DNA of 64,000 nt from Cyanobacteriota bacterium (GTDB lineage: Bacteria; Cyanobacteriota; Cyanobacteriia; Thermostichales; Thermostichaceae): the NCBI GenBank assembly GCA_033764955.1, contig JANRIL010000024.1, positions 128,001 through 192,000 of the forward strand, read 5' to 3'. Shown piece by piece: positions 53,188 to 63,675 of the stretch (positions are counted from its first letter, which is position 1; every line of letters begins with the position of its first letter). Below the pieces are notes generated by a model. The model saw only the letters and a list, made by a program, of their open reading frames with translations, searched no databases and was not told the DNA's origin. A program made the position numbers and the translations under genes.

Positions 53188-53360
53188 CGTTGTTCTAATT
53201 GCTCTAAGGGGATGGAGATAGATTTCAGTCGAGCAGACAGGATCCCAATCTCATGCCATTTGGTAGCGGCGGATCCGACTAACATCAACAGCAATCCAGA
53301 GGAGAGCAAACTGAGGAAGTCGCGCCAAAATCCAGGGTGGGATCCATTTCCGTAACTCAT
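53175..53360 (-). CDS. Small single-TM protein (possible holin/lysis accessory)
   Basis: ATGA overlap with the GH108 gene; hydrophobic helix. Confidence 0.5.
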   Translation of the reverse strand: MSYGNGSHPGFWRDFLSLLSSGLLLMLVGSAATKWHEIGILSARLKSISIPLEQLEQRCQP

Positions 53361-53890
53361 CGCGTAATCACCCCCATGAGCGCGTTGTCACGATTCAGCC
53401 AGCCTTGTAGGAAAACTCGTTGTGTGGGATTTTCTGTGACTCGTTGATGGCGGTATCGGATCCGAGCTTCCACAATGGCGATTGCGGTTTGGCGGGAGTT
53501 GTTTTTCTCAAAGGCAGCTTGAGTGATGGATCCCCAGATGCCATCCACCCCCACCTTGAGCACAGATTGCAGGAATTTGACGGATCCCATCACGCCAAAA
53601 TTGACTGCTGTATCAAACTGAGCAATTGCCAGGGGCAAGATCATCTGAACACAACGAGCGGGAGTCCAGTAGTTTTCCCAATAGATCCACTTCACCTCTT
53701 GCGGCTGGATCCGTTTCACATCTTGGGGAACCAGGTTCTTGCTTTTGCGCCAGTGATCATAGGTGGCCTGGGTGATGCCGAAGTTGGTGCGTCCACCTGG
53801 ATCCGCAGGATGATCCACAAAGCCACCTTCCCAGCGTTGGGTGAAGGCCAAGGCTTTTTCAAAATTCTGAGTATTCCTAGCAGCGGTCAT
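53357..53890 (-). CDS. Glycoside hydrolase family 108 lysozyme
   Basis: WEGGFVDHPADPGGRTNFGIT; FDTAVNFG; VDGIWG; FLQGWLNR. Confidence 0.93.
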   Translation of the reverse strand: MTAARNTQNFEKALAFTQRWEGGFVDHPADPGGRTNFGITQATYDHWRKSKNLVPQDVKRIQPQEVKWIYWENYWTPARCVQMILPLAIAQFDTAVNFGVMGSVKFLQSVLKVGVDGIWGSITQAAFEKNNSRQTAIAIVEARIRYRHQRVTENPTQRVFLQGWLNRDNALMGVITR

Positions 53891-54012
53891 AGTGAAATCT
53901 CAATAGCACACCTGCTAACCTAACGAACCAGATCCGGTCACCTGATGCACAGTGCAGCAAGTTAGATCTAGGGGTTTGCCAGGATGGATTCAACTGTTGT
54001 TGAGGTGTCAAA

Positions 54013-54273
54013 ATGCGTGTTGCAGATTTTCAATCCACTCTGCCGATTCCGGCTCCTGAGCTGCCTGCCAGCGTGGATCCCAATGATGCGATTGGTGTGG
54101 AGAAGTACATTTTCTCATTGCTCATTCACAGTGCCCATGTGGAGACCAAGCTCAATGAGAGCCTGCCCCGTACTCAGCGAGAGAATCGATTTGGGTTGAC
54201 CATCTCTGAGGATGGATCGTTGAAGGCCAGCATTGCTGGGCAAACCCAGTTGTCTGATTTGCAGATCAGTTGA
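54013..54273 (+). CDS. Hypothetical element-borne protein
   Basis: GAGG SD upstream; 86-aa ORF. Confidence 0.5.
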   Translation: MRVADFQSTLPIPAPELPASVDPNDAIGVEKYIFSLLIHSAHVETKLNESLPRTQRENRFGLTISEDGSLKASIAGQTQLSDLQIS

Positions 54274-54319
54274 TCTTGATTGTGAAAATGGTGCCTGCCC
54301 TAGTTGTCTGGGGCAGGTT

Positions 54320-54766
54320 TTATTCTTGTCTGGGATCCTTCAGGGGTGGATGCCAGCCTGCACTCACCCAGAATTGACGGACTTGGAGAATCGCACCTTC
54401 ATCGTGTTCATCATCATTGAGATCCAATCGATTACAGGTAGCGCGTCCTGTTGAAGTGGTTCCCAGGATTCTGAGAGCATCTTTAGTCCAGACAAAATGC
54501 TCTGACCATTGTTGTTGGCGAGGTTGAAATAAGGGAGCCGTCTTCTGGAATTCAGGATCTATGCCATCTCTAAAATTGTAGTGGCGATTGTTGCAACGAC
54601 GACAAGCTAAAGCCAGGTTATCCAGTTCGTCGGATCCGCCCAATGACTGAGGATGAATGTGATCAATCGTAAAAAGATCAGGACTCAGATATTCGGGGGA
54701 GTGGCAGTATTCACATAAGAATCCGGCTCGTTTTCGTACATATCTTCTAAGTGAGTCGGACACCAT
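54320..54766 (-). CDS. HNH endonuclease
   Basis: CEYC; IDHIHP..GG; NLALACRRCN; LFQPR..WSEHF; GRAT. Confidence 0.92.
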   Translation of the reverse strand: MVSDSLRRYVRKRAGFLCEYCHSPEYLSPDLFTIDHIHPQSLGGSDELDNLALACRRCNNRHYNFRDGIDPEFQKTAPLFQPRQQQWSEHFVWTKDALRILGTTSTGRATCNRLDLNDDEHDEGAILQVRQFWVSAGWHPPLKDPRQE

Positions 54767-55005
54767 TTTGCAGCAGCCGCTAGTTGAGCGTTGATAAAGG
54801 TAAATATTCTGGAGAGATCAGAGATCCCAGCCAGTTCAGCTTCTTCATCAGGAGTTAGGGATCCCGTTTTGTGACGGTCTAACAACTCGTCCGAGCGGGA
54901 TTGCAAGGATGAGCTGAACCGAAACAGCTTGATATTGCCTGCACTAACAACCCCAATTCCTTGGGGCAAAAGAGATGAGGGCTGAACCATGACTTGTGGC
55001 GACAT
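54685..55005 (-). CDS. Small partner of the HNH gene (putative antitoxin)
   Basis: LQSRSDELLDRHKTGSLTPDEEAELAG; overlaps the HNH start. Confidence 0.7.
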   Translation of the reverse strand: MSPQVMVQPSSLLPQGIGVVSAGNIKLFRFSSSLQSRSDELLDRHKTGSLTPDEEAELAGISDLSRIFTFINAQLAAAAKWCPTHLEDMYENEPDSYVNTATPPNI

Positions 55006-55063
55006 ATCACGTTAAAAGTAGCATTATCAGCATTCTAGCTTTTCATACCCTTGCCCTGTATTG

Positions 55064-55417
55064 TCATGAGACTATCAGGGAACTTGTTTCCAAAACCAGG
55101 CTATCTGAAATGATAAAAATTGCCTGCTCAGATCCCCCCACCCGCAACACCTGGATCCCAGACTCCAATTTCTGCAGGATCCGCCATAATCTTGACCAGT
55201 AAGGATCCAATAACAACGGCTCAAAAAACTCTTCCCCAGATTGGACAATAACCGGATCCCCCTGCGCCATTCGAGCACACACTTTGCTCACCACCAACGG
55301 ATAGGGAGCTAACTGCACAGGTTCATCTGCATCGGAGATGTAGCAGAGTTTCGGCACCAGTCGCCGCACCTGATCCTTGAGTTTGCTGCGCTTCGATTTG
55401 CGGTAGCGTACCTTCAT
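55064..55417 (-). CDS. Hypothetical protein
   Basis: Starts 3 nt after the XRE-ImmA stop with GAGG SD. Confidence 0.6.
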   Translation of the reverse strand: MKVRYRKSKRSKLKDQVRRLVPKLCYISDADEPVQLAPYPLVVSKVCARMAQGDPVIVQSGEEFFEPLLLDPYWSRLWRILQKLESGIQVLRVGGSEQAIFIISDSLVLETSSLIVS

Positions 55418-55420
55418 ACC

Positions 55421-56551
55421 TCACCAGGGTAATTCCTCAAATTCCAGACTTTCTTGATCCGATGCTTTTGAGGTCACACTCAGCAATCGTCTTTTGAGAT
55501 CCGCCTCTTTTACCTTCAGAAGTTGGGCGGCTTGAGAGAGTGAAATCGGGGATGATTCCAGACTCTCTTTGACAATTTCTAAGACTGATGAGGGATAAGC
55601 ATCGATCTTTTCAACATCAAAAATAGCGGGCACTTCAAACCACTGGGGATCCAGCTTCAATTGCACAGCCAAACTGCGGGGACTGCATTCCTTCCATTCT
55701 TCTCGTTGGGTAATCGAGATCAGTCTTTCTTCCCACAATCGCATCAACATCGTGGCGTAACTGACTCGCATTCTTACTGCCAACAACATCACCCGAATTG
55801 GATCCAAGTGATGAAACACAAAGCATTCTTGTACTAGATATCTCAGAGCTTTTCCTGGTACTAAAAAGTGGGCGGCAAAAACGTTGGCAAAGCGTTCTTT
55901 TGGGTCGGATCCGTGACTACTGACACTGGTAATCCCTTTGGCGGAATAGTGATAAAAGGCATGAGCTAATTCGTGAGCCAGAGTAAAAACTTGACGGCCT
56001 GGGGTGGTGTCGGAATTAACCAGGATGCAACTGCCTAAGCGGGGATGATTGTAATAGGCTCCTGAGATTTGACTGGATCCCATCTGACGAAAACTACCTA
56101 ATGGTGCTCGATAGACCAGTACCCCAATACTGTCGAGAAACCCAGCCAGATCTGAAATGGCATCCAGTCCGAGATCGTAATGTGCCCGCACCTCAACCGC
56201 CAAAGTAGGAGCGCGGCGGATGTCTTCTTCTAAGCCCCGATCTAATTTCTTGGGGGTTTTGAAAGTCTGGATCTCACGTCCTTGACTGGTGAGAAAATCT
56301 GCCCAGGCATCCAGAAAATCCAGCCAACCATCGATCTCGATCCGCACCTCACCGTTTTGCGGGATCCCGCGATAGAGCACTTCTCGCTCTTGATCTTCCG
56401 CCAGATCGATTTCCCCCAGTAGGTACGCCACAGGCACCTGATAAAACTTGGCCAGTTTCTGCAATGCACTGGCTTGAGGACGACGTTTGCCGTTTTCCCA
56501 AGTGGAGATCGTCTCGAGGGGAATCTTGATAGCTTTATCCGTATGAGACAA
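55421..56551 (-). CDS. XRE HTH-ImmA/IrrE metallopeptidase fusion, likely N-terminally truncated
   Basis: TISTWENGKRRP..LQKLAKFYQV HTH half; RQVFTLAHELAH; ERFANVFAAHFLVP. Confidence 0.88.
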   Translation of the reverse strand: MSHTDKAIKIPLETISTWENGKRRPQASALQKLAKFYQVPVAYLLGEIDLAEDQEREVLYRGIPQNGEVRIEIDGWLDFLDAWADFLTSQGREIQTFKTPKKLDRGLEEDIRRAPTLAVEVRAHYDLGLDAISDLAGFLDSIGVLVYRAPLGSFRQMGSSQISGAYYNHPRLGSCILVNSDTTPGRQVFTLAHELAHAFYHYSAKGITSVSSHGSDPKERFANVFAAHFLVPGKALRYLVQECFVFHHLDPIRVMLLAVRMRVSYATMLMRLWEERLISITQREEWKECSPRSLAVQLKLDPQWFEVPAIFDVEKIDAYPSSVLEIVKESLESSPISLSQAAQLLKVKEADLKRRLLSVTSKASDQESLEFEELPW

Positions 56552-56603
56552 GTTATCCTAGAGCGGGAAAACACTTAAATCGATCCACAAGCATTGCAAG
56601 ACC

Positions 56604-58038
56604 ATGGAATTGAATGATATTCAAGCCAGGATCAATACATTGATGACAGCTTTTGTTACAGAGATAAAAGGATCTTCTGCGATGGGCAGAAATGACATTA
56701 ATAAAGTTTCTGAACTTGTTTTGATTCCTATTTTCAAAGAAATATATGGCTATAGAAATTTGCAGAACTTGAATCATCAATACTCAATCAACTATCCTTC
56801 CATAGACCTAGGGGATGAAGTAAGTAAAGTTGCAATACAAGTCACGGCAACTCAAGATATAGAAAAGATTAAAGATACACTAAAAAAGTTTATCGAAAAC
56901 AAACTAAATCAGAAATTCAACAGATTAATTATATATATTCTTACCGAAAAACAGAGATCCTACTCTAGTAAATCAATAGAAAAGATAATCAATAGCACAT
57001 TTGATTTTTCTCCGGAAAATGACATTCTCGACTATCGAGATATCCTAAAAGAGGTTTCATCATTTCAAGTTGACAAAGCAAGAAAGATTAGAGAAATTCT
57101 TGAGTCAAACTTTAGCAGTTACAGATTTAATGGCAATCAAGAACCTATTGATTTAGCTACTCAATCTATCTATCTAAATCTATTGGAACTAAAATTCCCT
57201 GAGAATATGTATTTAGCTGAAATTGCTCATAATATATCAACATCCACTAAGGATGCACCAAGAAAAAATAAAGCCCCCAGAGACATCGTAAAGATTTTAC
57301 TTGAGGATTTGGGTTTAAAATCTAGCTCGGATTGGGTTATCTCAGGAAATAAAATTATTACATTTAACGATCTCGAAAACAATTCAATTCCTTTATCTAA
57401 TATTACTCGAAAAGATACAATAAATATTGTTAATTCAATAAAATATTGCAGTGCTAGTATGGATAACGAGTCAATTTTTAAATCCCTATTAGATCGCTGT
57501 ATGCAACAAAAGCTATATCACCGTGGAGTTCAATGGCAAAACGAAGAAAAACTATTCATTTTCACTTCAATACAAAATCAGCCTAAACGTACTGAGAAAT
57601 GGAAAGGAGAAAAGGAAAGTGTAAGAACAGTATATGAGCGCAAGATGAAAAAAAACAAGCCTGAGGAGATATTGTGTTATAAGCACCTAGGATTCAGAAT
57701 TCAGTATTGACAGTAAGTGGTATTGCATAGTAAAACCCGATTGGTTCTTTAGCCATGATGGATATAAGAGGTCATACTATCATGCTCAATCAGTCCAATG
57801 GCTCAAAAAACAAGAAAATGACACACAAGTCTTTAATCATCTAAGATTTATCGTGTATTTCCTCTCCAACGAGCCAGAGGCAAGTTTATTTGATATGAAG
57901 CGATCTTATCCATTCCTGTCTTTTGGAAATTTATTAAGCTTTGATTGTGCTCCAATTCTAAAGGATGAGGATTGGAATCCATCAGATCAACTTCAGCCAG
58001 ATCAACTAGAGTCAGATCAGTTAACTATAGATTTATGA
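56604..58038 (+). pseudogene. SMEK-domain/APAZ-like partner of a short Argonaute, split by a frameshift near 57705
   Basis: N-terminal NLQNLN..NYPSIDLGD..VAIQVTAT..KIKDTL (SMEK-like); the +1 frame is open 57691-58038 (KWYCIVKPDWFFSHDGY..ENDTQVFNHLRF) and ends in an ATGA overlap with the Ago gene. Confidence 0.75.
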
Positions 58039-59459
58039 GATCACATTTTCTTCAGGAACCTTTTCTTGAGTTTGGCTGCGGGCAGCATATTTGTCCTAGG
58101 GCTGGAATCTCCGAATATAAGGTATATGATACAAGGTTTTCTGCAAGACGTGAGAAGATTTTGGTCGGAGCAATTGGAACAAGTCAGAATTTGACTGAAT
58201 TTAGTTTATGGCTTGATAAATGCTCAAAGGTTATACCAGGAAAATCTGAATCAAGACATAGTAACCTTTATCCTTCATTTTGTGGATTTAATTTGGAATC
58301 TGGCTATAAAGCAAGGTTTATATTTAATGAGGAGATAACAAGGAAAATAAATAATTCAGACATAAAGAATTTGCTTAAAATTGAAAACTGGAATGATAGA
58401 GTAAATGAGACATCAGAATTATACTACCAGCTTACTAAATTTCTAGCTCAAAATAGGTCTGTTGATGTTATTGTGTGTATTATCCCAGACGAATTATATA
58501 GTAAAATATCTCAAAAGGAAAAGACCCCTATCGAAGAATCAATTGACGAAGCTGCTTCTGTTGATATTTTAGAGAATAATTTTCGAAGACTTATTAAAGC
58601 AAAAAGCATGCATCTTGGTAAGCCTATACAGTTATTGCGTAGCTCATCATTGCAGTCTAATTCTACAATGCAACAGGATGATGCAACCAAGGCTTGGAAC
58701 TTTTCCACTGCTTTATATTATAAAGCTAATCAAACAGTTCCCTGGAAGCTAATAACAAATATCAATAGACCATCTATTTGTTTTGTAGGAATTAGTTTTT
58801 ATCGTAGTCGCGACAGAAAAATATTGCATACAAGTCTTGCCCAATTGTTTGATGAATTAGGCAATAGTGTAATTCTTAGAGGCACACCAGTAGCCATTGG
58901 CAAAGATGATCGTCAGCCACACTTGACAGCTTATCAAGCTCATGCACTACTAAAAGAATCACTATCTGAGTATGCGCTCGCTCTTGGTAACTTTCCCGCA
59001 AGGTTAGTTATTCATAAATCATCAAAATTCAATGATCAAGAGATTGATGGTTTTAGAAGTGCTGCCTCAGAAGCGAGAGTCAATTCTATCGACTTTGTCT
59101 CCATCCTTGATACTGATATTCGACTATTTCGAGGGCAGACTTACCCACCGTACAGAGGTACTCTCATTGAGTTGGATTCTAAAACTAATTTGTTGTATAC
59201 TAAAGGTTCAGTTAATTACTATAAAACTTATACAGGGAAATACATACCACATCCATTAGAAATTAGGGTGGCTGATGCTGACGAGTCTCCTAAGGTAATA
59301 TGTGAAGAGATTCTCGCACTAACAAAAATGAACTGGAATAATACACAGTTTGACGGTAGGCTTCCTATCACAATCCAGTGTTCTAGGAAAGTTGGTGAGA
59401 TTATGAAATACTTGAGTGAACATGATAATCCTCAAGTTCGTTATTGTTATTACATGTAG
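58035..59459 (+). CDS. Short prokaryotic Argonaute (MID-PIWI, catalytically inactive)
   Basis: EPFLEFG start; KPIQL; ALYYKA; PW; CFVGISFY; RLVIHKSS; RGT; LLYTKG; ILALTKMNWN; LPITI; 474 aa, no N/PAZ domains. Confidence 0.93.
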   Translation: MRSHFLQEPFLEFGCGQHICPRAGISEYKVYDTRFSARREKILVGAIGTSQNLTEFSLWLDKCSKVIPGKSESRHSNLYPSFCGFNLESGYKARFIFNEEITRKINNSDIKNLLKIENWNDRVNETSELYYQLTKFLAQNRSVDVIVCIIPDELYSKISQKEKTPIEESIDEAASVDILENNFRRLIKAKSMHLGKPIQLLRSSSLQSNSTMQQDDATKAWNFSTALYYKANQTVPWKLITNINRPSICFVGISFYRSRDRKILHTSLAQLFDELGNSVILRGTPVAIGKDDRQPHLTAYQAHALLKESLSEYALALGNFPARLVIHKSSKFNDQEIDGFRSAASEARVNSIDFVSILDTDIRLFRGQTYPPYRGTLIELDSKTNLLYTKGSVNYYKTYTGKYIPHPLEIRVADADESPKVICEEILALTKMNWNNTQFDGRLPITIQCSRKVGEIMKYLSEHDNPQVRYCYYM

Positions 59460-59544
59460 TTGAAGACTTGTTTTAAAGTTGCAAATTTAATTGTAAAAGA
59501 GCGAATTTATTACCTGACCCACTTTGCCTTAGCCTAATGGTTGA

Positions 59545-61530
59545 ATGGCTGTTTATAAAAGGGATCCCCACCCTCTGCAAGAGCTACTGCAAACCCTGCG
59601 CGAGTCTTACACCCCAGAACAAAAACAGCAGATCTGGTCAACCTTCTCACCTCAGTTACGCAGTCGGATCCATGCCCTGCTCAAAGACCAAGATCCTCGC
59701 CAAGCCATTACCCGCGAGAAGGGATCATTAGAGGTGGATCTTGAGAAGTTGGATCTCAACTACCACTCTCCCGTTCCTATCCCAGAATGGAAACCTACTC
59801 TGCAACTTAAGCCCTACGAGCAACTGAGTAAGCTCTATCTGGATATTGACGCTTCAGGACTGGATCCAGCCTATGACCGCGTTTTGATGGTAGGGTTCAT
59901 GGATCATTTCGGTTCTGTAACTCTGTTAACGGATCCGGATGAACGCCAAATCCTGATCCAAACCCTGGAATTTCTCAGATCTCATCCCCATGAATTGCTG
60001 ATCGGTCACAACCTCTTCCAGTTCGATTTACCCTTCTTGATGACCCGCTGGGATTTGCATGGGATCCCTCATCTCTTTAGTTACAAAAAAGATCATCACG
60101 GACAGCAAATCACCCAAACCATTACTGCCTCAAGCTTTCACAGCAAGCCGATCCAATTTCACCCCATTACCTGTTCAGGGATCCAGATCCTCGATACTTT
60201 CCACCAGATCTGTATCTGGGATAAAAGTGCTGCCAAACTTGAAAGCTACAATCTCAAATCCTGTGTTCTCACTTTGGGATTACGGGATACTCAACGGCTG
60301 GATCTTTCCCCTGATCAGATCCAAAACTGTTGGGCAAATGGAGATCTACAAACCCTCTCTCAATATCTACACTTTGATCTGGAAGACACCCAACGACTGG
60401 CAGATTTTCTCTTGCCTGTGGTCTATTACCAACTTGCAGTAGTCCCCCAGATCTCCTTCCAAGACTTAGCCGTAGCTTCTCCTGCTCTGAAAGCCCAACG
60501 GATCCATCAATCTCTCTTACCTAACCTCAAGCCAGAGGCGGATCCACCCGTTCACTATGGTGGTGGAACAGTAGAGTGCATCACCCCTGGATTGCACCGC
60601 AATGTTGCCAAAATCGACATCAGCTCCCTCTATCCCAGCATCATGCTCAGGTTTGGGATCTGTTCTCGCAAGGATCCAGAACATAAATTCTTGGGCGTGA
60701 TGCAATACATGACTCAGGAACGTCTGCACCTGAAACAATTAGCCAAAGAGGGAAATATCCAAGCTCATCACGAACAGAATGCGCTCAAGATCTTGATCAA
60801 CGGATCCTATGGCTTTTTAGGCACAGGCGGTTACACTTTCAACGACTACGAAGCGGCAGCTCTAGTCACTGCCTATGGTCGAAAGATCCTGCAACAGATG
60901 AAAGAGGTAGTGGAAGAGAACAACGGGATCCTGATTGAGTTAGACACTGATGGGATCTTCTTTTCTCATCCCCAACCTCAAGACATTGTTGAGAAAGTGC
61001 AGCACGCTTTACCCGATGGGATCATGGCTGAATTGGAGCTATCAAGCTGTGGGATGTATGTCCCCAAGGCTAAGAGTTATGTGATCATTCATCCCAACGG
61101 CAAGACCACGATTAAGGGGATCTTTCGCAAACGAAATCGCTATCCTCTGGAGCGGATCTTCCCCGTTGAGTTCCTGAAACGGTATTTTCTGGAATCAGAG
61201 GAAGTTGCCTTTGCTTATTACCAAAAGGTGAGAGAGTCAATTCAACAGCGACGGATCTCTATCGAGGAGTTGACTATTACTCACAAGATTGGATCCGCTG
61301 AGAAACAACTCCTCAAATTGGGTAAACCTGGTGAAGTGGTCAGCTATTTTTATGTTGAGCAGAAACGGATCCATCCCAAAAGTCGGAAGCTATTGTCATC
61401 TGTCGCTGCAGAATCCACTACTGGGGATTACTGGATCGATTGGTATCTGAACCGATTGGATCAGCAAGTCCAAGAAATGACAGGGATCCAGGTAAATGAA
61501 GAATCCCAGCTCCCGATAAGTCTTGTATAA
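59545..61530 (+). CDS. Family B DNA polymerase with 3'-5' exonuclease-like domain
   Basis: LDIDASG; GHNLFQFDLPFL; YLHFD; DISSLYPSIM; KILINGSYGFLG; DTDG; KSY. Confidence 0.9.
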   Translation: MAVYKRDPHPLQELLQTLRESYTPEQKQQIWSTFSPQLRSRIHALLKDQDPRQAITREKGSLEVDLEKLDLNYHSPVPIPEWKPTLQLKPYEQLSKLYLDIDASGLDPAYDRVLMVGFMDHFGSVTLLTDPDERQILIQTLEFLRSHPHELLIGHNLFQFDLPFLMTRWDLHGIPHLFSYKKDHHGQQITQTITASSFHSKPIQFHPITCSGIQILDTFHQICIWDKSAAKLESYNLKSCVLTLGLRDTQRLDLSPDQIQNCWANGDLQTLSQYLHFDLEDTQRLADFLLPVVYYQLAVVPQISFQDLAVASPALKAQRIHQSLLPNLKPEADPPVHYGGGTVECITPGLHRNVAKIDISSLYPSIMLRFGICSRKDPEHKFLGVMQYMTQERLHLKQLAKEGNIQAHHEQNALKILINGSYGFLGTGGYTFNDYEAAALVTAYGRKILQQMKEVVEENNGILIELDTDGIFFSHPQPQDIVEKVQHALPDGIMAELELSSCGMYVPKAKSYVIIHPNGKTTIKGIFRKRNRYPLERIFPVEFLKRYFLESEEVAFAYYQKVRESIQQRRISIEELTITHKIGSAEKQLLKLGKPGEVVSYFYVEQKRIHPKSRKLLSSVAAESTTGDYWIDWYLNRLDQQVQEMTGIQVNEESQLPISLV

Positions 61531-61556: not shown

Positions 61557-61799
61557 ATGATTACTCAAAAAGTCAGATTCTGGGGCAATTCGCTGGGGAT
61601 CCGTATCCCTCAAGCTATCCTGCAGCAGATTGGTATCACAGAAGGATCTACGGTTTCTCTCTCCATCGAAGGCAATCGAGTCATTATCTCCCCTACCCGT
61701 CTCAAGTACACCCTGGAAGAACTTCTGAAGGATGTGGATCCGGTTTCGCAGCACAATGAAGTGGAATGGGGAGATCCGGTAGGAGAAGAGCAGTGGTAA
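61557..61799 (+). CDS. mazE: MazE/AbrB antitoxin
   Basis: WGNSLGIRIP; YTLEELL; EVEWGDPVGEE. Confidence 0.93.
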   Translation: MITQKVRFWGNSLGIRIPQAILQQIGITEGSTVSLSIEGNRVIISPTRLKYTLEELLKDVDPVSQHNEVEWGDPVGEEQW

Positions 61800-62137
61800 A
61801 AATTGATGGACAAGTTCCAGAACGAGGTGACATCATCCGCTTACAATTCAATCCGAGAATCGGCAGTGAGCAAGCAGGTTTTCGCCCCGCTATTGTGATT
61901 TCTCCATCACCTTATAACCGGATCTCAAAGCTGATTTTGGTTTGCCCGATTACCAGCCAGGAGAAAGGTTGGCCTTTTGAGGTGAAACTCCCACCTGAGA
62001 TGCAAATTCAGGGAGTGGTTTTAGTAGACCAAATCCGCACGGTTGACTGTGCTGCCAGAGGATCTAGCTTTGTCGAGAAAGCGCCTGCTGAAGTATTAGA
62101 TGAGATCTTAGCCAGACTAGAGCCCCTTGTAGGCTAA
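61793..62137 (+). CDS. mazF: MazF/PemK toxin
   Basis: PERGDII..FNP..GSEQAGFRPAIVIS; CPITSQ; DQIRTVD; GTG start overlapping mazE is likely. Confidence 0.93.
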   Translation: MVKIDGQVPERGDIIRLQFNPRIGSEQAGFRPAIVISPSPYNRISKLILVCPITSQEKGWPFEVKLPPEMQIQGVVLVDQIRTVDCAARGSSFVEKAPAEVLDEILARLEPLVG

Positions 62138-63357
62138 TCCTCTACACCATACAACTCCGGTAGTTCAACACGGCGAATACTGGATGCATAAAAATCGTAG
62201 AGGGTTTCTACTCGATGCCCTGCCATCTCTGCCATTGTGGTCGGATCCACCCCTGCTTCTAGAGCATGGGAGATCACGGTATGTCGAGTTTTGTACTGAG
62301 TTGTCAAGTGGGGTTGCCATTCGATCCCAGCAGCATTCAAACAAGCCCGCCAACAGCGATTGACAAAATTATGGCTGTCAATAAATCCCCCTTTGGGTGC
62401 AGGAAAAACTAAAGCTTTGCAGTCTAACTTTTCTGGTTGACGATCCTTGAGTAATGCGACCAACGTTGGGTTCATCGGGAAAACCCGCTCTTCTTCCGTT
62501 TTGGTCGTCTTGACCCGAACTTCTCCAGCATCACCTCGCCATAGAGAACGGTCAAACTGGATTTCCCGCCGATCAAAATCGATTTGCTCCCAGCTCAAAG
62601 CCACCGCTTCCCCAGTGCGGCAACCTGTCAGCAAGAGGAATTTTACGAAGTCGAAGTAGTGGCTGTAGTAACGATCCTGCTGAAGAAATTGCAGTATTGC
62701 TTTAACCTGCTGAGCAGAATAAGCACGACGACTGCGGCGACGCGGCAGGGCAATATGGATCCCCCCGAAATGTTCAGGATCCAGCTTTTTGAGCGTCGCC
62801 ACATAGCGCCGTAGACTGGCAGGCTTCAGCTCTTGCTTGGATCCTTTCTGTAACCAAGCCACCAGCTCCTCAGCCTCGACTGTGGAGCGGATAGGTTTAT
62901 GCCACTGCCTAAGACGACTCAGCAAGGCGTTGTCAGCTCGATTGAAGTTTTTCGCTAATTGCTTTTCCAACAACGAGATCAACTCAATCCCTTCTACTTG
63001 TCGCTCCCGCTGCGGCTTGTAGGTCTTCAGCGTCGGATCCAGATGCCCACTGGCCATATCCAGTTCAATCTGAGTTGCTTTCCCAATCGCAGCCGTCCGA
63101 TTTACTTTACTGTCGGGCAATCCCAAAGCAAAACAGTAGCGTTTGCCCAGATGGGTGAACCGGATCCGTAAGCGGCCATTATCGGTTTCGATTTTGACAG
63201 ATCCGTTGGGGGATGTGGCCACAAGGGTAGATTTCTGCTGGTCTGCACCCTCAGTGGTAGAAAGTGGTAGGATTTCCGCTTCGTTCCTACCACTCGCCTC
63301 TTTTTCGTGTGAGATCCTTACCCTGGGCACGTTATAGGCTGCAAAACTTCCTACCAA
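62134..63357 (-). CDS. Tyrosine integrase with N-terminal arm-binding (DUF3596-like) domain
   Basis: NGRLRIRF..GKRY; LTGCRTGE; K; YKTRHT; GH; Y; true start may be near 63220. Confidence 0.93.
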   Translation of the reverse strand: MVGSFAAYNVPRVRISHEKEASGRNEAEILPLSTTEGADQQKSTLVATSPNGSVKIETDNGRLRIRFTHLGKRYCFALGLPDSKVNRTAAIGKATQIELDMASGHLDPTLKTYKPQRERQVEGIELISLLEKQLAKNFNRADNALLSRLRQWHKPIRSTVEAEELVAWLQKGSKQELKPASLRRYVATLKKLDPEHFGGIHIALPRRRSRRAYSAQQVKAILQFLQQDRYYSHYFDFVKFLLLTGCRTGEAVALSWEQIDFDRREIQFDRSLWRGDAGEVRVKTTKTEEERVFPMNPTLVALLKDRQPEKLDCKALVFPAPKGGFIDSHNFVNRCWRACLNAAGIEWQPHLTTQYKTRHTVISHALEAGVDPTTMAEMAGHRVETLYDFYASSIRRVELPELYGVED

Positions 63358-63368
63358 AATCCTACCAT
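63253..63368. repeat. Five TGGTAG/CTACCA repeats (putative integrase arm sites)
   Basis: AGTGGTAGAAAGTGGTAGG, TTCCTACCAC, TTCCTACCAAAATCCTACCA. Confidence 0.55.
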
Positions 63369-63450
63369 TTTTCGACCTAAAGCCCCCGAAAATAACCCAA
63401 TCTACACCCGCTTATAGAGAATGAGCCACCGGATCTCAGATTTCAGAAAC

Positions 63451-63478
63451 AATAAAACCCGCTCCAGAAGCAGGTTTG
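63451..63478 (-). terminator. Terminator downstream of tRNA-Thr
   Basis: Minus strand AAACCTGCT-TCTGG-AGCGGGTTT followed by TATT. Confidence 0.6.
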
Positions 63479-63484
63479 AGAGGA

Positions 63485-63557
63485 AGCTGATGATCGGACT
63501 CGAACCGACGACCTGCTCATTACGAGTGAGCTGCTCTACCAACTGAGCTACATCAGC
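63485..63557 (-). tRNA. tRNA-Thr(CGT)
   Basis: GCTGATG/CATCAGC acceptor stem; anticodon loop CTCGTAA; GGTTCGAGTCC T arm. Confidence 0.96.
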
Positions 63558-63675
63558 CTATTGAGTTTGGCGAAACCTATCGTAGCTTTTCCCCTTGAGA
63601 TTCTACAACTATCCGATTCATCCAAGTTTTTTCTCTGAGACCGGGATCCCTATGTCACTCAGACCGACTTCTCCC

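Follow-up and report, generated by a model that had tools for sequence, protein, structure and literature searches.

Does the gene pair at 56604-59459 of the window (the whole 64,000-nt stretch of cyanobacterial DNA analysed here) represent a new kind of defence system, as the initial annotation proposed, and is it likely to work? Our reading, to which we give a probability of roughly 80%, is that the cassette encodes a SMEK (Mrr-like)-APAZ protein and a short prokaryotic Argonaute (pAgo), a type known from Kordia jejudonensis, and that it was gained horizontally, lost 8 nt by deletion and is most likely inactive. The two-gene type, in which a nuclease-APAZ partner accompanies an inactive Argonaute, is already described, and the locus is probably an ordinary, dead member of a known short-Argonaute family. 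The argument draws on the following features, in window coordinates:

55421..56551, minus strand: HTH + M78 (ImmA/IrrE-like) gene, with Pfam and PADLOC RmrA-like matches; truncated at its 5' end, where the cassette begins
56552..59544: low-GC cassette with only two genes, edges approximate; GC 0.343, against 0.497 to the left and 0.485 to the right
56604..57710, plus strand: 5' part of gene 1, 368 codons closed early by TGA; encodes the SMEK (Mrr-like) nuclease domain and the beginning of APAZ
56628..57056, plus strand: SMEK domain, residues 9-151 (Pfam PF21941, SMEK_N, E 1.1e-44)
57708..57710, plus strand: break point, an in-frame TGA where homologues have three further codons
57709..58038, plus strand: 3' part of gene 1, 109 APAZ codons read in frame +1 and ending within the ATGA overlap
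58035..59459, plus strand: short pAgo of 474 aa, MID and inactive PIWI, intact (PADLOC pAgo_I, PDB matches, tetrad check)
59545..61530, plus strand: family-B DNA polymerase (PolB) remnant, 661 aa, 70% identity to a protein of relative G003
61557..63558: island end, with MazE/MazF, tyrosine integrase and tRNA-Thr
61557-62137, plus strand: MazE/MazF pair
62134-63357, minus strand: tyrosine integrase
63482-63558, minus strand: tRNA-Thr

Gene 2 had been described as a 474-aa Argonaute made up of MID and PIWI only, and this description agrees with its end-to-end alignment with solved short pAgos (9qbp_B, 2.2e-77; 9jsb_A, 1.1e-74; 9om4_B, 1.2e-61). Identification was by PADLOC and PDB, with a PADLOC pAgo_I match at E 9.9e-179 (residues 1-474 against profile positions 1-455); a Pfam search gave no match at E <= 0.01, and the Pfam Piwi model misses the short pAgo in its own genome too. 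The catalytic Asp residues are indeed lost, as first proposed: GISFY and HKSS lie where they had been placed, and at three positions of the tetrad the residue is not acidic. When three long pAgos of relatives are aligned with gene 2, their VG[LIF]D, [HL]RDG and C-terminal [AS]D fall on VGIS254, HKS329S and S450-R451, placing S254, S329 and R451 at the three Asp positions, and GISFY and HKSS therefore occupy the catalytic positions named earlier; the glutamate-finger position aligns with D292, within an uncertain loop. The 5'-phosphate pocket (R184, K188 and K230, corresponding to R183, K187 and K240 of NbaAgo) is conserved, and the NbaAgo guide contacts are matched by N182, F183, R184, K188, K230, Q214 and N222. 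Two residues of the A1-base pocket of NbaAgo, W159 and W201, are replaced by S159 and R202, so the preference for the first base of the guide may differ.

The N-terminus of gene 1, first called SMEK-like, carries SMEK_N over residues 9-151 and also matches PDB 26bh_D, entitled 'Mrr domain from Kordia jejudonensis Mrr-APAZ pAgo', over residues 14-171 (E 1.3e-23; 1.6e-41 in a profile search). SMEK_N is the only Pfam domain found on gene 1, with no DUF4365/DREN, and the DREN part of 9qbp_A scores just 0.4 bits against the gene 1 family profile. Residues N63, P65, I67, D68, L69, D71, Q79, T81, K88 and D143 are invariant across 37 of 37 aligned domains. The predicted SMEK structure (pLDDT 89.4; elements H32-48, E69-71, E76-81, H86-98 and E107-112) appears to adopt the PD-(D/E)xK restriction-endonuclease fold, at middling Z values: the best matches in a wide VIA search are restriction-type nucleases at Z 8.6-5, led by 1y88_A (Z 8.6, rmsd 3.3 over 108 residues), and at least 15 of the best 25 VIA rows are restriction-type or other nucleases by title. 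Foldseek with the SMEK-only model returned no match at E <= 0.001. The canonical D...(D/E/Q)-x-K motif is not present as such; D68 and Q79 are invariant, and T81 takes the place of the motif lysine. Because this threonine stands at the motif-lysine position of Mrr and DREN in all 37 domains, the nuclease chemistry of SMEK is something that we infer; the invariant K88, in the helix after Q79-x-T81, may replace the motif lysine of PD-(D/E)xK nucleases.

The region after SMEK, which the initial annotation had read as APAZ, is indeed APAZ. Positions 229-478 of the family profile match solved DREN-APAZ chains (9qbp_A, 9.4e-26; 9jsb_D, 4.4e-23), PADLOC Aga_SIR2-PNTD1-PNTD2 matches residues 243-367 (E 1.8e-07), and Foldseek with a model of the 368-aa gene 1 product finds SPARDA and SPARTA partner chains as best matches, at E down to 9.4e-07. 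The two pieces of gene 1 fall on adjoining positions of PADLOC PDLC02399 (Aga_REase-PNTD1-PNTD2): the 5' piece on 1-365 of 463 (E 6.6e-117), the 3' piece on 366-459 (E 2.2e-27). The 3' piece also matches PDLC02415 (E 3.2e-30) and, by tblastn, shares 31-59% identity with homologues.

Homologues of gene 1 are numerous (276 found, mostly about 470-500 aa). A search for related loci, which used an alignment without the C-terminal piece of gene 1, yielded 80 fetched loci, 38 of them SMEK-APAZ; three of these are cut and were left out of the pairing count. In every one of the 35 with enough downstream DNA, a short pAgo (48-66% identity) follows on the same strand, and the co-occurrence on which the first interpretation depended is thus general among them. 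Sampled SMEK-only loci have SMEK_N at the head of STAND/NACHT proteins with TPR/WD40. Related loci also include three-gene operons of an EAD8-trypsin-like protease, an EAD8-APAZ protein and a short pAgo; the pAgo of these operons forms a sister group of the same pAgo. One such set of three genes is carried on a plasmid (locus L045, AP018182.1).

This pairing has already been catalogued. PADLOC-DB 2.0 (2023) models both genes and holds three separate models for the SMEK-APAZ/short-pAgo architecture, and excerpts of PMC10810196 and PMC12205087 describe SMEK-APAZ with short pAgo, both citing Kim et al. 2020 (KjAgo); the name SPARMA is given to the system in a preprint (bioRxiv 10.1101/2025.04.08.647717). 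The PADLOC term 'PNTD' is absent from Burroughs et al. 2013 (PMC3702460), and the main text of Kaur et al. 2020 (PMC7159879) contains neither 'SMEK' nor 'Argonaute'. The initial annotation itself had held that novelty would fall if the N-terminus proved to be an already characterised DREN/Mrr effector, and the Kordia Mrr domain is just that. A new, uncharacterised class of short-pAgo system is therefore hardly credible: defence in vivo by SMEK-APAZ proteins is thinly documented in the literature searched, which leaves such a view some room, but the PADLOC models, the solved domain structure and publications that name and describe the type all speak against it.

The setting of the cassette points to a foreign origin. 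A search of 30 relatives did not recover the operon DNA; no homologue occurs in the 22 same-family or seven same-order genomes searched, and the 11 same-class genomes gave one distant homologue (31% identity). Both genes adjoining the cassette are truncated relative to G003: residue 6 of the HTH-M78 protein aligns with residue 21 of its 391-aa orthologue there, and the PolB remnant is the counterpart of residues 901-1556 in a PriCT-2/DUF3987/PolB protein of 1571 aa. The cassette edges are marked by neither direct nor inverted repeats. Scanning 56300-59700 for promoters and terminators gave no higher counts than the shuffle means, and no candidate lies in the 52 nt that precede gene 1.

The partner gene does not have a single intact reading frame. 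Frame A runs over 56604-57710, with 368 codons and then TGA, and a second frame (+1) over 57709-58035, with 109 codons and a stop at 58036-58038; at the break, 1 nt stands where 40 of 40 homologous loci have 9 nt in the same frame, with 8 nt missing. The initial annotation's sole hint of this was a 'repaired gene 1' among its proposed checks; the frame split itself was found here. Its picture of two genes coupled by an ATGA overlap survives in part: the overlap at 58035-58038 is present, the ATG at 58035-58037 overlapping the TGA at 58036-58038, but gene 1 is not one open frame and the coupling belongs to the second frame only. A duplication through the 7-bp near-repeat ATTCAGA/ATTCAGT (57692-57705) was considered as the cause of the frameshift and ruled out, given that frame A fits the family consensus up to Y368 (FRIQY, against FRTQY) and that homologues add three codons. 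The lesion is the only one: neither piece of gene 1 has further stops, no family-invariant residue has changed and the pAgo is complete, so that decay, if any, must be very recent. Unless the assembly is wrong, gene 1 is a member of its family by descent and a pseudogene by state.

An error in the assembly or consensus at 57708, with a system that is intact and working, is unlikely. A lone lesion among retained invariant residues is what such an error would leave, and the break is known from one assembly, a draft genome of 48 contigs that is 89% complete. However, sequencing errors do not usually remove 8 nt where there is no homopolymer, and the truncation of both flanking genes implies that the region carries real rearrangements.

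The stop might alternatively act as a gate, with a programmed +1 ribosomal frameshift at UAU-UGA-C limiting the toxic SMEK-APAZ protein and, via the ATGA coupling, the pAgo as well; if so, this would be a short-pAgo system with its dose set by translational recoding. The stop falls exactly at the change of frame, the downstream frame is open up to the ATGA overlap, and the U-UGA-C context is one that we take to resemble the prfB shift site. Against these points, all 40 homologues are single-frame with three further codons, which indicates that nucleotides have been lost here and that more than a change of frame is involved; ahead of the stop no Shine-Dalgarno-like stimulator can be seen, and a tRNA-Tyr on UAU should be unable to re-pair on AUU. 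We consider recoding very improbable.

It is similarly improbable that the pieces act separately, the truncated SMEK-APAZ (1-368) as a nuclease or toxin without a partner, or the pAgo, now an orphan, in some independent role. Neither the pAgo gene nor its guide-binding residues are damaged, and the SMEK domain does occur on quite different carriers, the STAND NTPases; but the lost C-terminal part matches the APAZ region that packs against Ago in the solved SPARDA (as presented in the excerpt of PMC12205087), translational coupling to the pAgo is gone, and neither gene is preceded by a promoter-like site, the counts being under the shuffle mean.

A recently inactivated copy of a known system is thus the reading that we prefer. 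In an intact system, the APAZ and MID-PIWI proteins would form a heterodimer, whose MID pocket would carry a guide, probably of RNA, with a 5' phosphate. On pairing with invader DNA the complex would change, probably through oligomerisation by analogy with SPARDA, and release the N-terminal PD-(D/E)xK-type SMEK nuclease for collateral DNA cleavage and abortive defence. Homology lends support to this functional reading, whether the defence is abortive or collateral; the initial annotation had largely anticipated it in proposing a short pAgo that activates a PD-(D/E)xK-like SMEK nuclease joined to APAZ, for abortive defence. On this reading the cassette entered horizontally, into the integrase/tRNA-Thr island, replacing about 4.4 kb and truncating both neighbours. 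A later 8-nt deletion at 57708 put the last 109 APAZ codons out of frame; ribosomes now stop 325 nt before the pAgo start, and the ATGA coupling is lost. With the end of APAZ out of frame and the coupling lost, the system is most likely inactive.

The locus is therefore a further copy, and probably a dead one, of a short-Argonaute system already catalogued, and it illustrates gain as low-GC cargo in integrative islands followed by loss through small deletions. The SMEK-APAZ family is itself thinly studied, the literature searched offering one in vitro study (via citations) and one domain structure. Intact homologues, among them those of Pseudanabaena sp. SR411 (L010) and Phormidesmis priestleyi BC1401 (L002), could be used to address the mechanism of the unusual D/Q-x-T/K88 active site.

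Among known systems, the N-terminal Mrr-like effector of the STAND NTPase Avs4 (8dgf) resembles the SMEK domain alone, the SMEK model aligning to its residues 1-177 (Z 6.6), whereas the sensor of Avs4-type proteins is an NTPase with repeats and not APAZ/pAgo. SPARTA and SPARSA (TIR-APAZ and SIR2-APAZ) follow the same operon logic, and their Agos match at about 1e-35 and 8.4e-19, but their effectors are NADases and not nucleases. SPARHA (HNH-APAZ with short pAgo, 9om4) is closer, its Ago aligning full-length (1.2e-61) and its APAZ reaching E 1.4e-08 in a profile search, although its effector is an HNH nuclease of another fold. SPARDA (NbaSPARDA 9jsb; Xau/Eae SPARDA 9qbq/9qbp) comes closest among solved structures, both in Ago (2.2e-77 to 1.1e-74) and in APAZ (9.4e-26 to 1.1e-21), has the 5'-phosphate pocket residues in common, and likewise carries a PD-(D/E)xK-type nuclease effector N-terminal to APAZ. 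The effector there is DUF4365/DREN, however, and here SMEK_N, so that in the strict sense the locus is not SPARDA; the DREN residues D41/Q60/K62, as given in the excerpt of PMC12205087, stand against D68/Q79/T81 and the invariant K88 in SMEK. Activation by filaments is a SPARDA feature that SMEK systems would share only by analogy. PMC12205087 lumps SMEK systems under SPARDA. The order of E-values would place the locus in clade S2B, next to SPARDA and SPARHA. The nearest counterpart is KjAgo/SPARMA of Kordia (Kim, Jung and Lim 2020, as cited in the excerpts of PMC10810196 and PMC12205087), for which a heterodimer with guide- and target-dependent nuclease activity is reported in those citations. 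Its homology to the present locus is measured over the SMEK domain only, and gene 1 is frameshifted here, but the two share the same two-gene order, SMEK-APAZ followed by an inactive MID-PIWI pAgo.

The initial annotation described gene 1 and gene 2 as an operon coupled by an ATGA overlap. The overlap is present in the raw sequence, where the ATG at 58035-58037 (plus strand) lies over a TGA at 58036-58038, but gene 1 is not one open frame: that TGA closes the +1 frame, not the frame begun at 56604, which stops at a TGA at 57708-57710.

56604-57710, plus strand: gene 1, 5' piece, 368 codons, ending in TGA
57691-58038, plus strand: open frame of the gene 1 3' piece, +1 relative to the 5' piece
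58035-59459, plus strand: gene 2 (short pAgo), 474 codons from the ATG at 58035

Homologues of gene 1 (276 at E <= 0.001) are mostly about 470-500 aa long, and in alignment they read ...FRTQYKRFxxxWYLL... at the break point, where gene 1 reads FRIQY, a stop, and then DSKWYCIV in the +1 frame. In 40/40 loci with both pieces aligning (36 SMEK-APAZ and 4 with another N-terminus), 9 nt in a single frame separate the codon equivalent to Y368 from the first-D codon of the 3' piece, versus 1 nt in the window; therefore, 8 nt are missing at 57708. Neither piece contains a further stop or frame shift. It is improbable that the gap is an assembly error, and a programmed +1 shift, by which the two pieces would be read as one protein, is unlikely, given that the break lacks three conserved codons outright instead of carrying them in another frame. 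The window's copy of the system is most likely inactivated. Immediately 5' of the deletion point is a 7-bp near-tandem repeat, ATTCAGA ATTCAGT (57692-57705); this may be a slippage-prone context, and is not itself the source of the frameshift.

The two genes occupy alone a cassette of 34.3% GC (56552-59544), between flanks of 49.7% (left) and 48.5% (right). The operon DNA was not recovered from the 30 relatives searched, and the pAgo protein as query recovered no homologue among 22 same-family or 7 same-order genomes, and one distant homologue (31% identity) among 11 same-class genomes. A same-family relative, G003, shares these flanks (locus L090, G003:C20:18000-30000), but the interval differs there, with an HTH-M78 gene of 391 aa, an ORF of 211 aa, and a PriCT-2/DUF3987/PolB replication protein of 1571 aa. 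The cassette's surroundings are an integrative island, in which the genes at 53357-55417 appear to be additional cargo of the island or of a prophage remnant.

53357-53890, minus strand: GH108 lysozyme with peptidoglycan-binding domain, left of the cassette
54320-54766, minus strand: HNH endonuclease, left of the cassette
55064-55417, minus strand: NuiA nuclease inhibitor, weak match (E 0.0024, below cut-off), left of the cassette
55421-56551, minus strand: M78 gene, without the first ~15 codons relative to G003
59545-61530, plus strand: PolB ORF, 661 aa, corresponding to residues 901-1556 of the G003 1571-aa protein (70% identity)
61557-63558: right end of the island, with MazE/MazF toxin-antitoxin genes, a 407-aa tyrosine integrase, and tRNA-Thr(CGT)

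The flank comparison thus indicates that the cassette replaced about 4.4 kb, truncating both neighbors, and that what it displaced was an integrated element's replication module.

The SMEK-like start first proposed for gene 1 is recovered by Pfam as SMEK_N (PF21941; residues 9-151, E 1.1e-44). PADLOC assigns both pieces to Aga_REase-PNTD1-PNTD2 (PDLC02399), the 5' piece covering profile positions 1-365 of 463 (6.6e-117) and the 3' piece the adjoining positions 366-459 (2.2e-27). The rest of the gene had been read as APAZ, and positions 229-478 of the family profile match the APAZ part of solved SPARDA DREN-APAZ chains (9.4e-26 to 1.1e-21) and SPARHA HNH-APAZ (1.4e-08). For the 368-aa piece, AlphaFold gave a model of modest quality (pLDDT 67.9, pTM 0.45), whose best Foldseek matches are SPARDA and SPARTA partner chains (E down to 9.4e-07, probability 1.00), at low TM-scores of 0.2-0.34. 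On these profile and partner-chain matches, the C-terminal region is APAZ.

The SMEK part aligns with the solved structure 26bh (1.3e-23; 1.6e-41 using the family profile), deposited as 'the Mrr domain from Kordia jejudonensis Mrr-APAZ pAgo'. Residues 1-175 are modelled with confidence (pLDDT 89.4, pTM 0.86), their elements running alpha (32-48), beta (69-71), beta (76-81), alpha (86-98), beta (107-112). No Foldseek match to this model reached E <= 0.001 (closest EcoO109I, 2.6e-02), and a wide VIA search recovered 1y88_A (Z 8.6, rmsd 3.3, 108 residues aligned), the LlaBIII N-terminal nuclease (Z 7.8), FokI (Z 7.2), Avs4 residues 1-177 (Z 6.6), BspD6I, and NucC, with at least 15 of the best 25 rows being nucleases by title. 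These Z values alone are middling; combined with the sequence match to 26bh, whose deposited name is Mrr, they speak for a restriction-endonuclease fold. N63, P65, I67, D68, L69, D71, Q79, T81, K88, and D143 are invariant across 37 aligned SMEK domains, both APAZ-fused and STAND-fused. In the active-site region (residues 68-88; window 56805-56870), where D68, Q79, T81, and K88 are kept in 37/37 domains, D68 and Q79 occupy the positions of DREN D41 and Q60 (PMC12205087). Mrr and DREN have D...Q-x-K, whereas SMEK has T81 in place of the motif lysine; the invariant K88 seems to stand in for it, as a lysine moved into the following helix.

PADLOC identifies gene 2 as pAgo_I (9.9e-179), while Pfam finds nothing in its protein at E <= 0.01. 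Solved short pAgos align with the protein from end to end: SPARDA Agos at E 2.2e-77 to 1.1e-74, the SPARHA Ago at 1.2e-61, SPARTA Agos at about 1e-35, and 8in8_C (Piwi domain protein) at 8.4e-19. This order of E-values, SPARDA before SPARHA before SPARTA, places it putatively in clade S2B, the nuclease-associated short-pAgo group of Koopal et al. (PMC9097488). The description of gene 2 as a 474-aa short pAgo without catalytic Asp agrees with its alignment to three long pAgos of relatives: these carry VG[LIF]D, GET, [HL]RDG, and [AS]D, where gene 2 has VGIS254, an uncertain D292, HKS329S, and S450-R451, losses also seen in five short homologues. Of the 41 relatives' genomes searched, 3 encode long pAgos (L091, L092, L093), in open frames of 728-754 aa that keep an acidic residue at each of the four catalytic positions; a search of the window's own genome using Pfam Piwi recovered no long pAgo. 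In NbaAgo, R183, K187, and K240 are 5'-phosphate ligands and W159 and W201 belong to the first-base pocket (PMC12205087). Aligned to 9jsb_A, the ligands are conserved as R184, K188, and K230 of gene 2, as are N181, F182, Q224, and N232, and gene 2 thus looks capable of binding a 5'-phosphorylated guide. The two pocket residues are replaced by S159 and R202, and first-base preference may differ from that of NbaAgo.

A one-genome-per-species scan yielded 418 confirmed relatives, with 80 loci kept and classed by tblastn. The expected co-occurrence of the two genes elsewhere is borne out: of 38 SMEK-APAZ loci, three end within 155 nt, and all 35 with downstream room have a short pAgo there on the same strand (48-66% identity). 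Loci pairing APAZ with another N-terminus also have one (4/4), and SMEK-domain-only loci have none downstream within the locus (0/38; L016, L018-L025, L027, L029, L030, and L032-L036 among them). SMEK_N in this last class is 45-58% identical to the window's and heads large proteins of 900-1590 aa with NTPase domains (AAA_16, NACHT) and TPR or WD40 repeats. Pfam scans of six such proteins recovered TPR/WD40 repeats, NACHT or another NTPase domain, or both (L016, L023, L063), TPR repeats with a PIN domain (L032), and SMEK_N alone (L024). SMEK thus heads NTPase and repeat proteins without a nearby pAgo, as a portable effector head common to several sensor types.

In the four APAZ loci without SMEK (L045, L046, L049, L052), the APAZ protein instead begins with an EAD8 adaptor domain (Pfam: L049, 5.9e-06, 27.3 bits; L045, 9.7e-05, below cut-off), which occupies the position of the nuclease in SMEK-APAZ. 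An EAD8-Trypsin_2 protease gene (EAD8 4.4e-23, Trypsin_2 4.3e-23; 75-78% identity between loci) comes first in 3/3 loci with upstream room, L052 being cut upstream. The resulting three-gene operons (L045:3521-7330, on Nostoc carneum NIES-2107 plasmid2; L049:2065-5891; L046:3522-6121) encode, in order, the EAD8 and trypsin-like protease (353 aa), EAD8-APAZ (425-432 aa), and a short pAgo that shares 61-62% identity with the one in the window (56% over 68 residues in L046, which is cut). EAD8 recruits effectors, in a paper whose main text does not mention Argonaute (Kaur et al. 2020, PMC7159879), and the domain content suggests that EAD8-EAD8 pairing could recruit the protease effector to EAD8-APAZ/pAgo. 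Literature searches for EAD or trypsin with APAZ gave nothing relevant among the best 12 of 74 and best 10 of 119 matches; the three-gene arrangement may represent an as yet undescribed short-pAgo system armed with a protease.

The mechanism proposed in the initial annotation, a nuclease activated by the pAgo, is the accepted one for the nuclease-APAZ short-pAgo group. Its claim of a new defense system does not hold: PADLOC models, the Kordia Mrr domain (26bh), and published descriptions of KjAgo/SPARMA precede it. According to PMC12205087, KjAgo targets DNA by means of an RNA guide and shows weak collateral nuclease activity, and bioRxiv 10.1101/2025.04.08.647717 calls the Kordia system SPARMA and separates its branch from that of SPARDA. 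A SMEK-APAZ/short pAgo heterodimer with RNA-guided DNA cleavage is mentioned as an earlier report in PMC10810196. Ryazansky et al. 2018 counted 100 group-IIb APAZ proteins as having 'no extra domain'; these may, we infer, include the SMEK-APAZ type. The window's system is not new; it belongs to a family that, with 6 papers found to mention it, is known already, but little studied.
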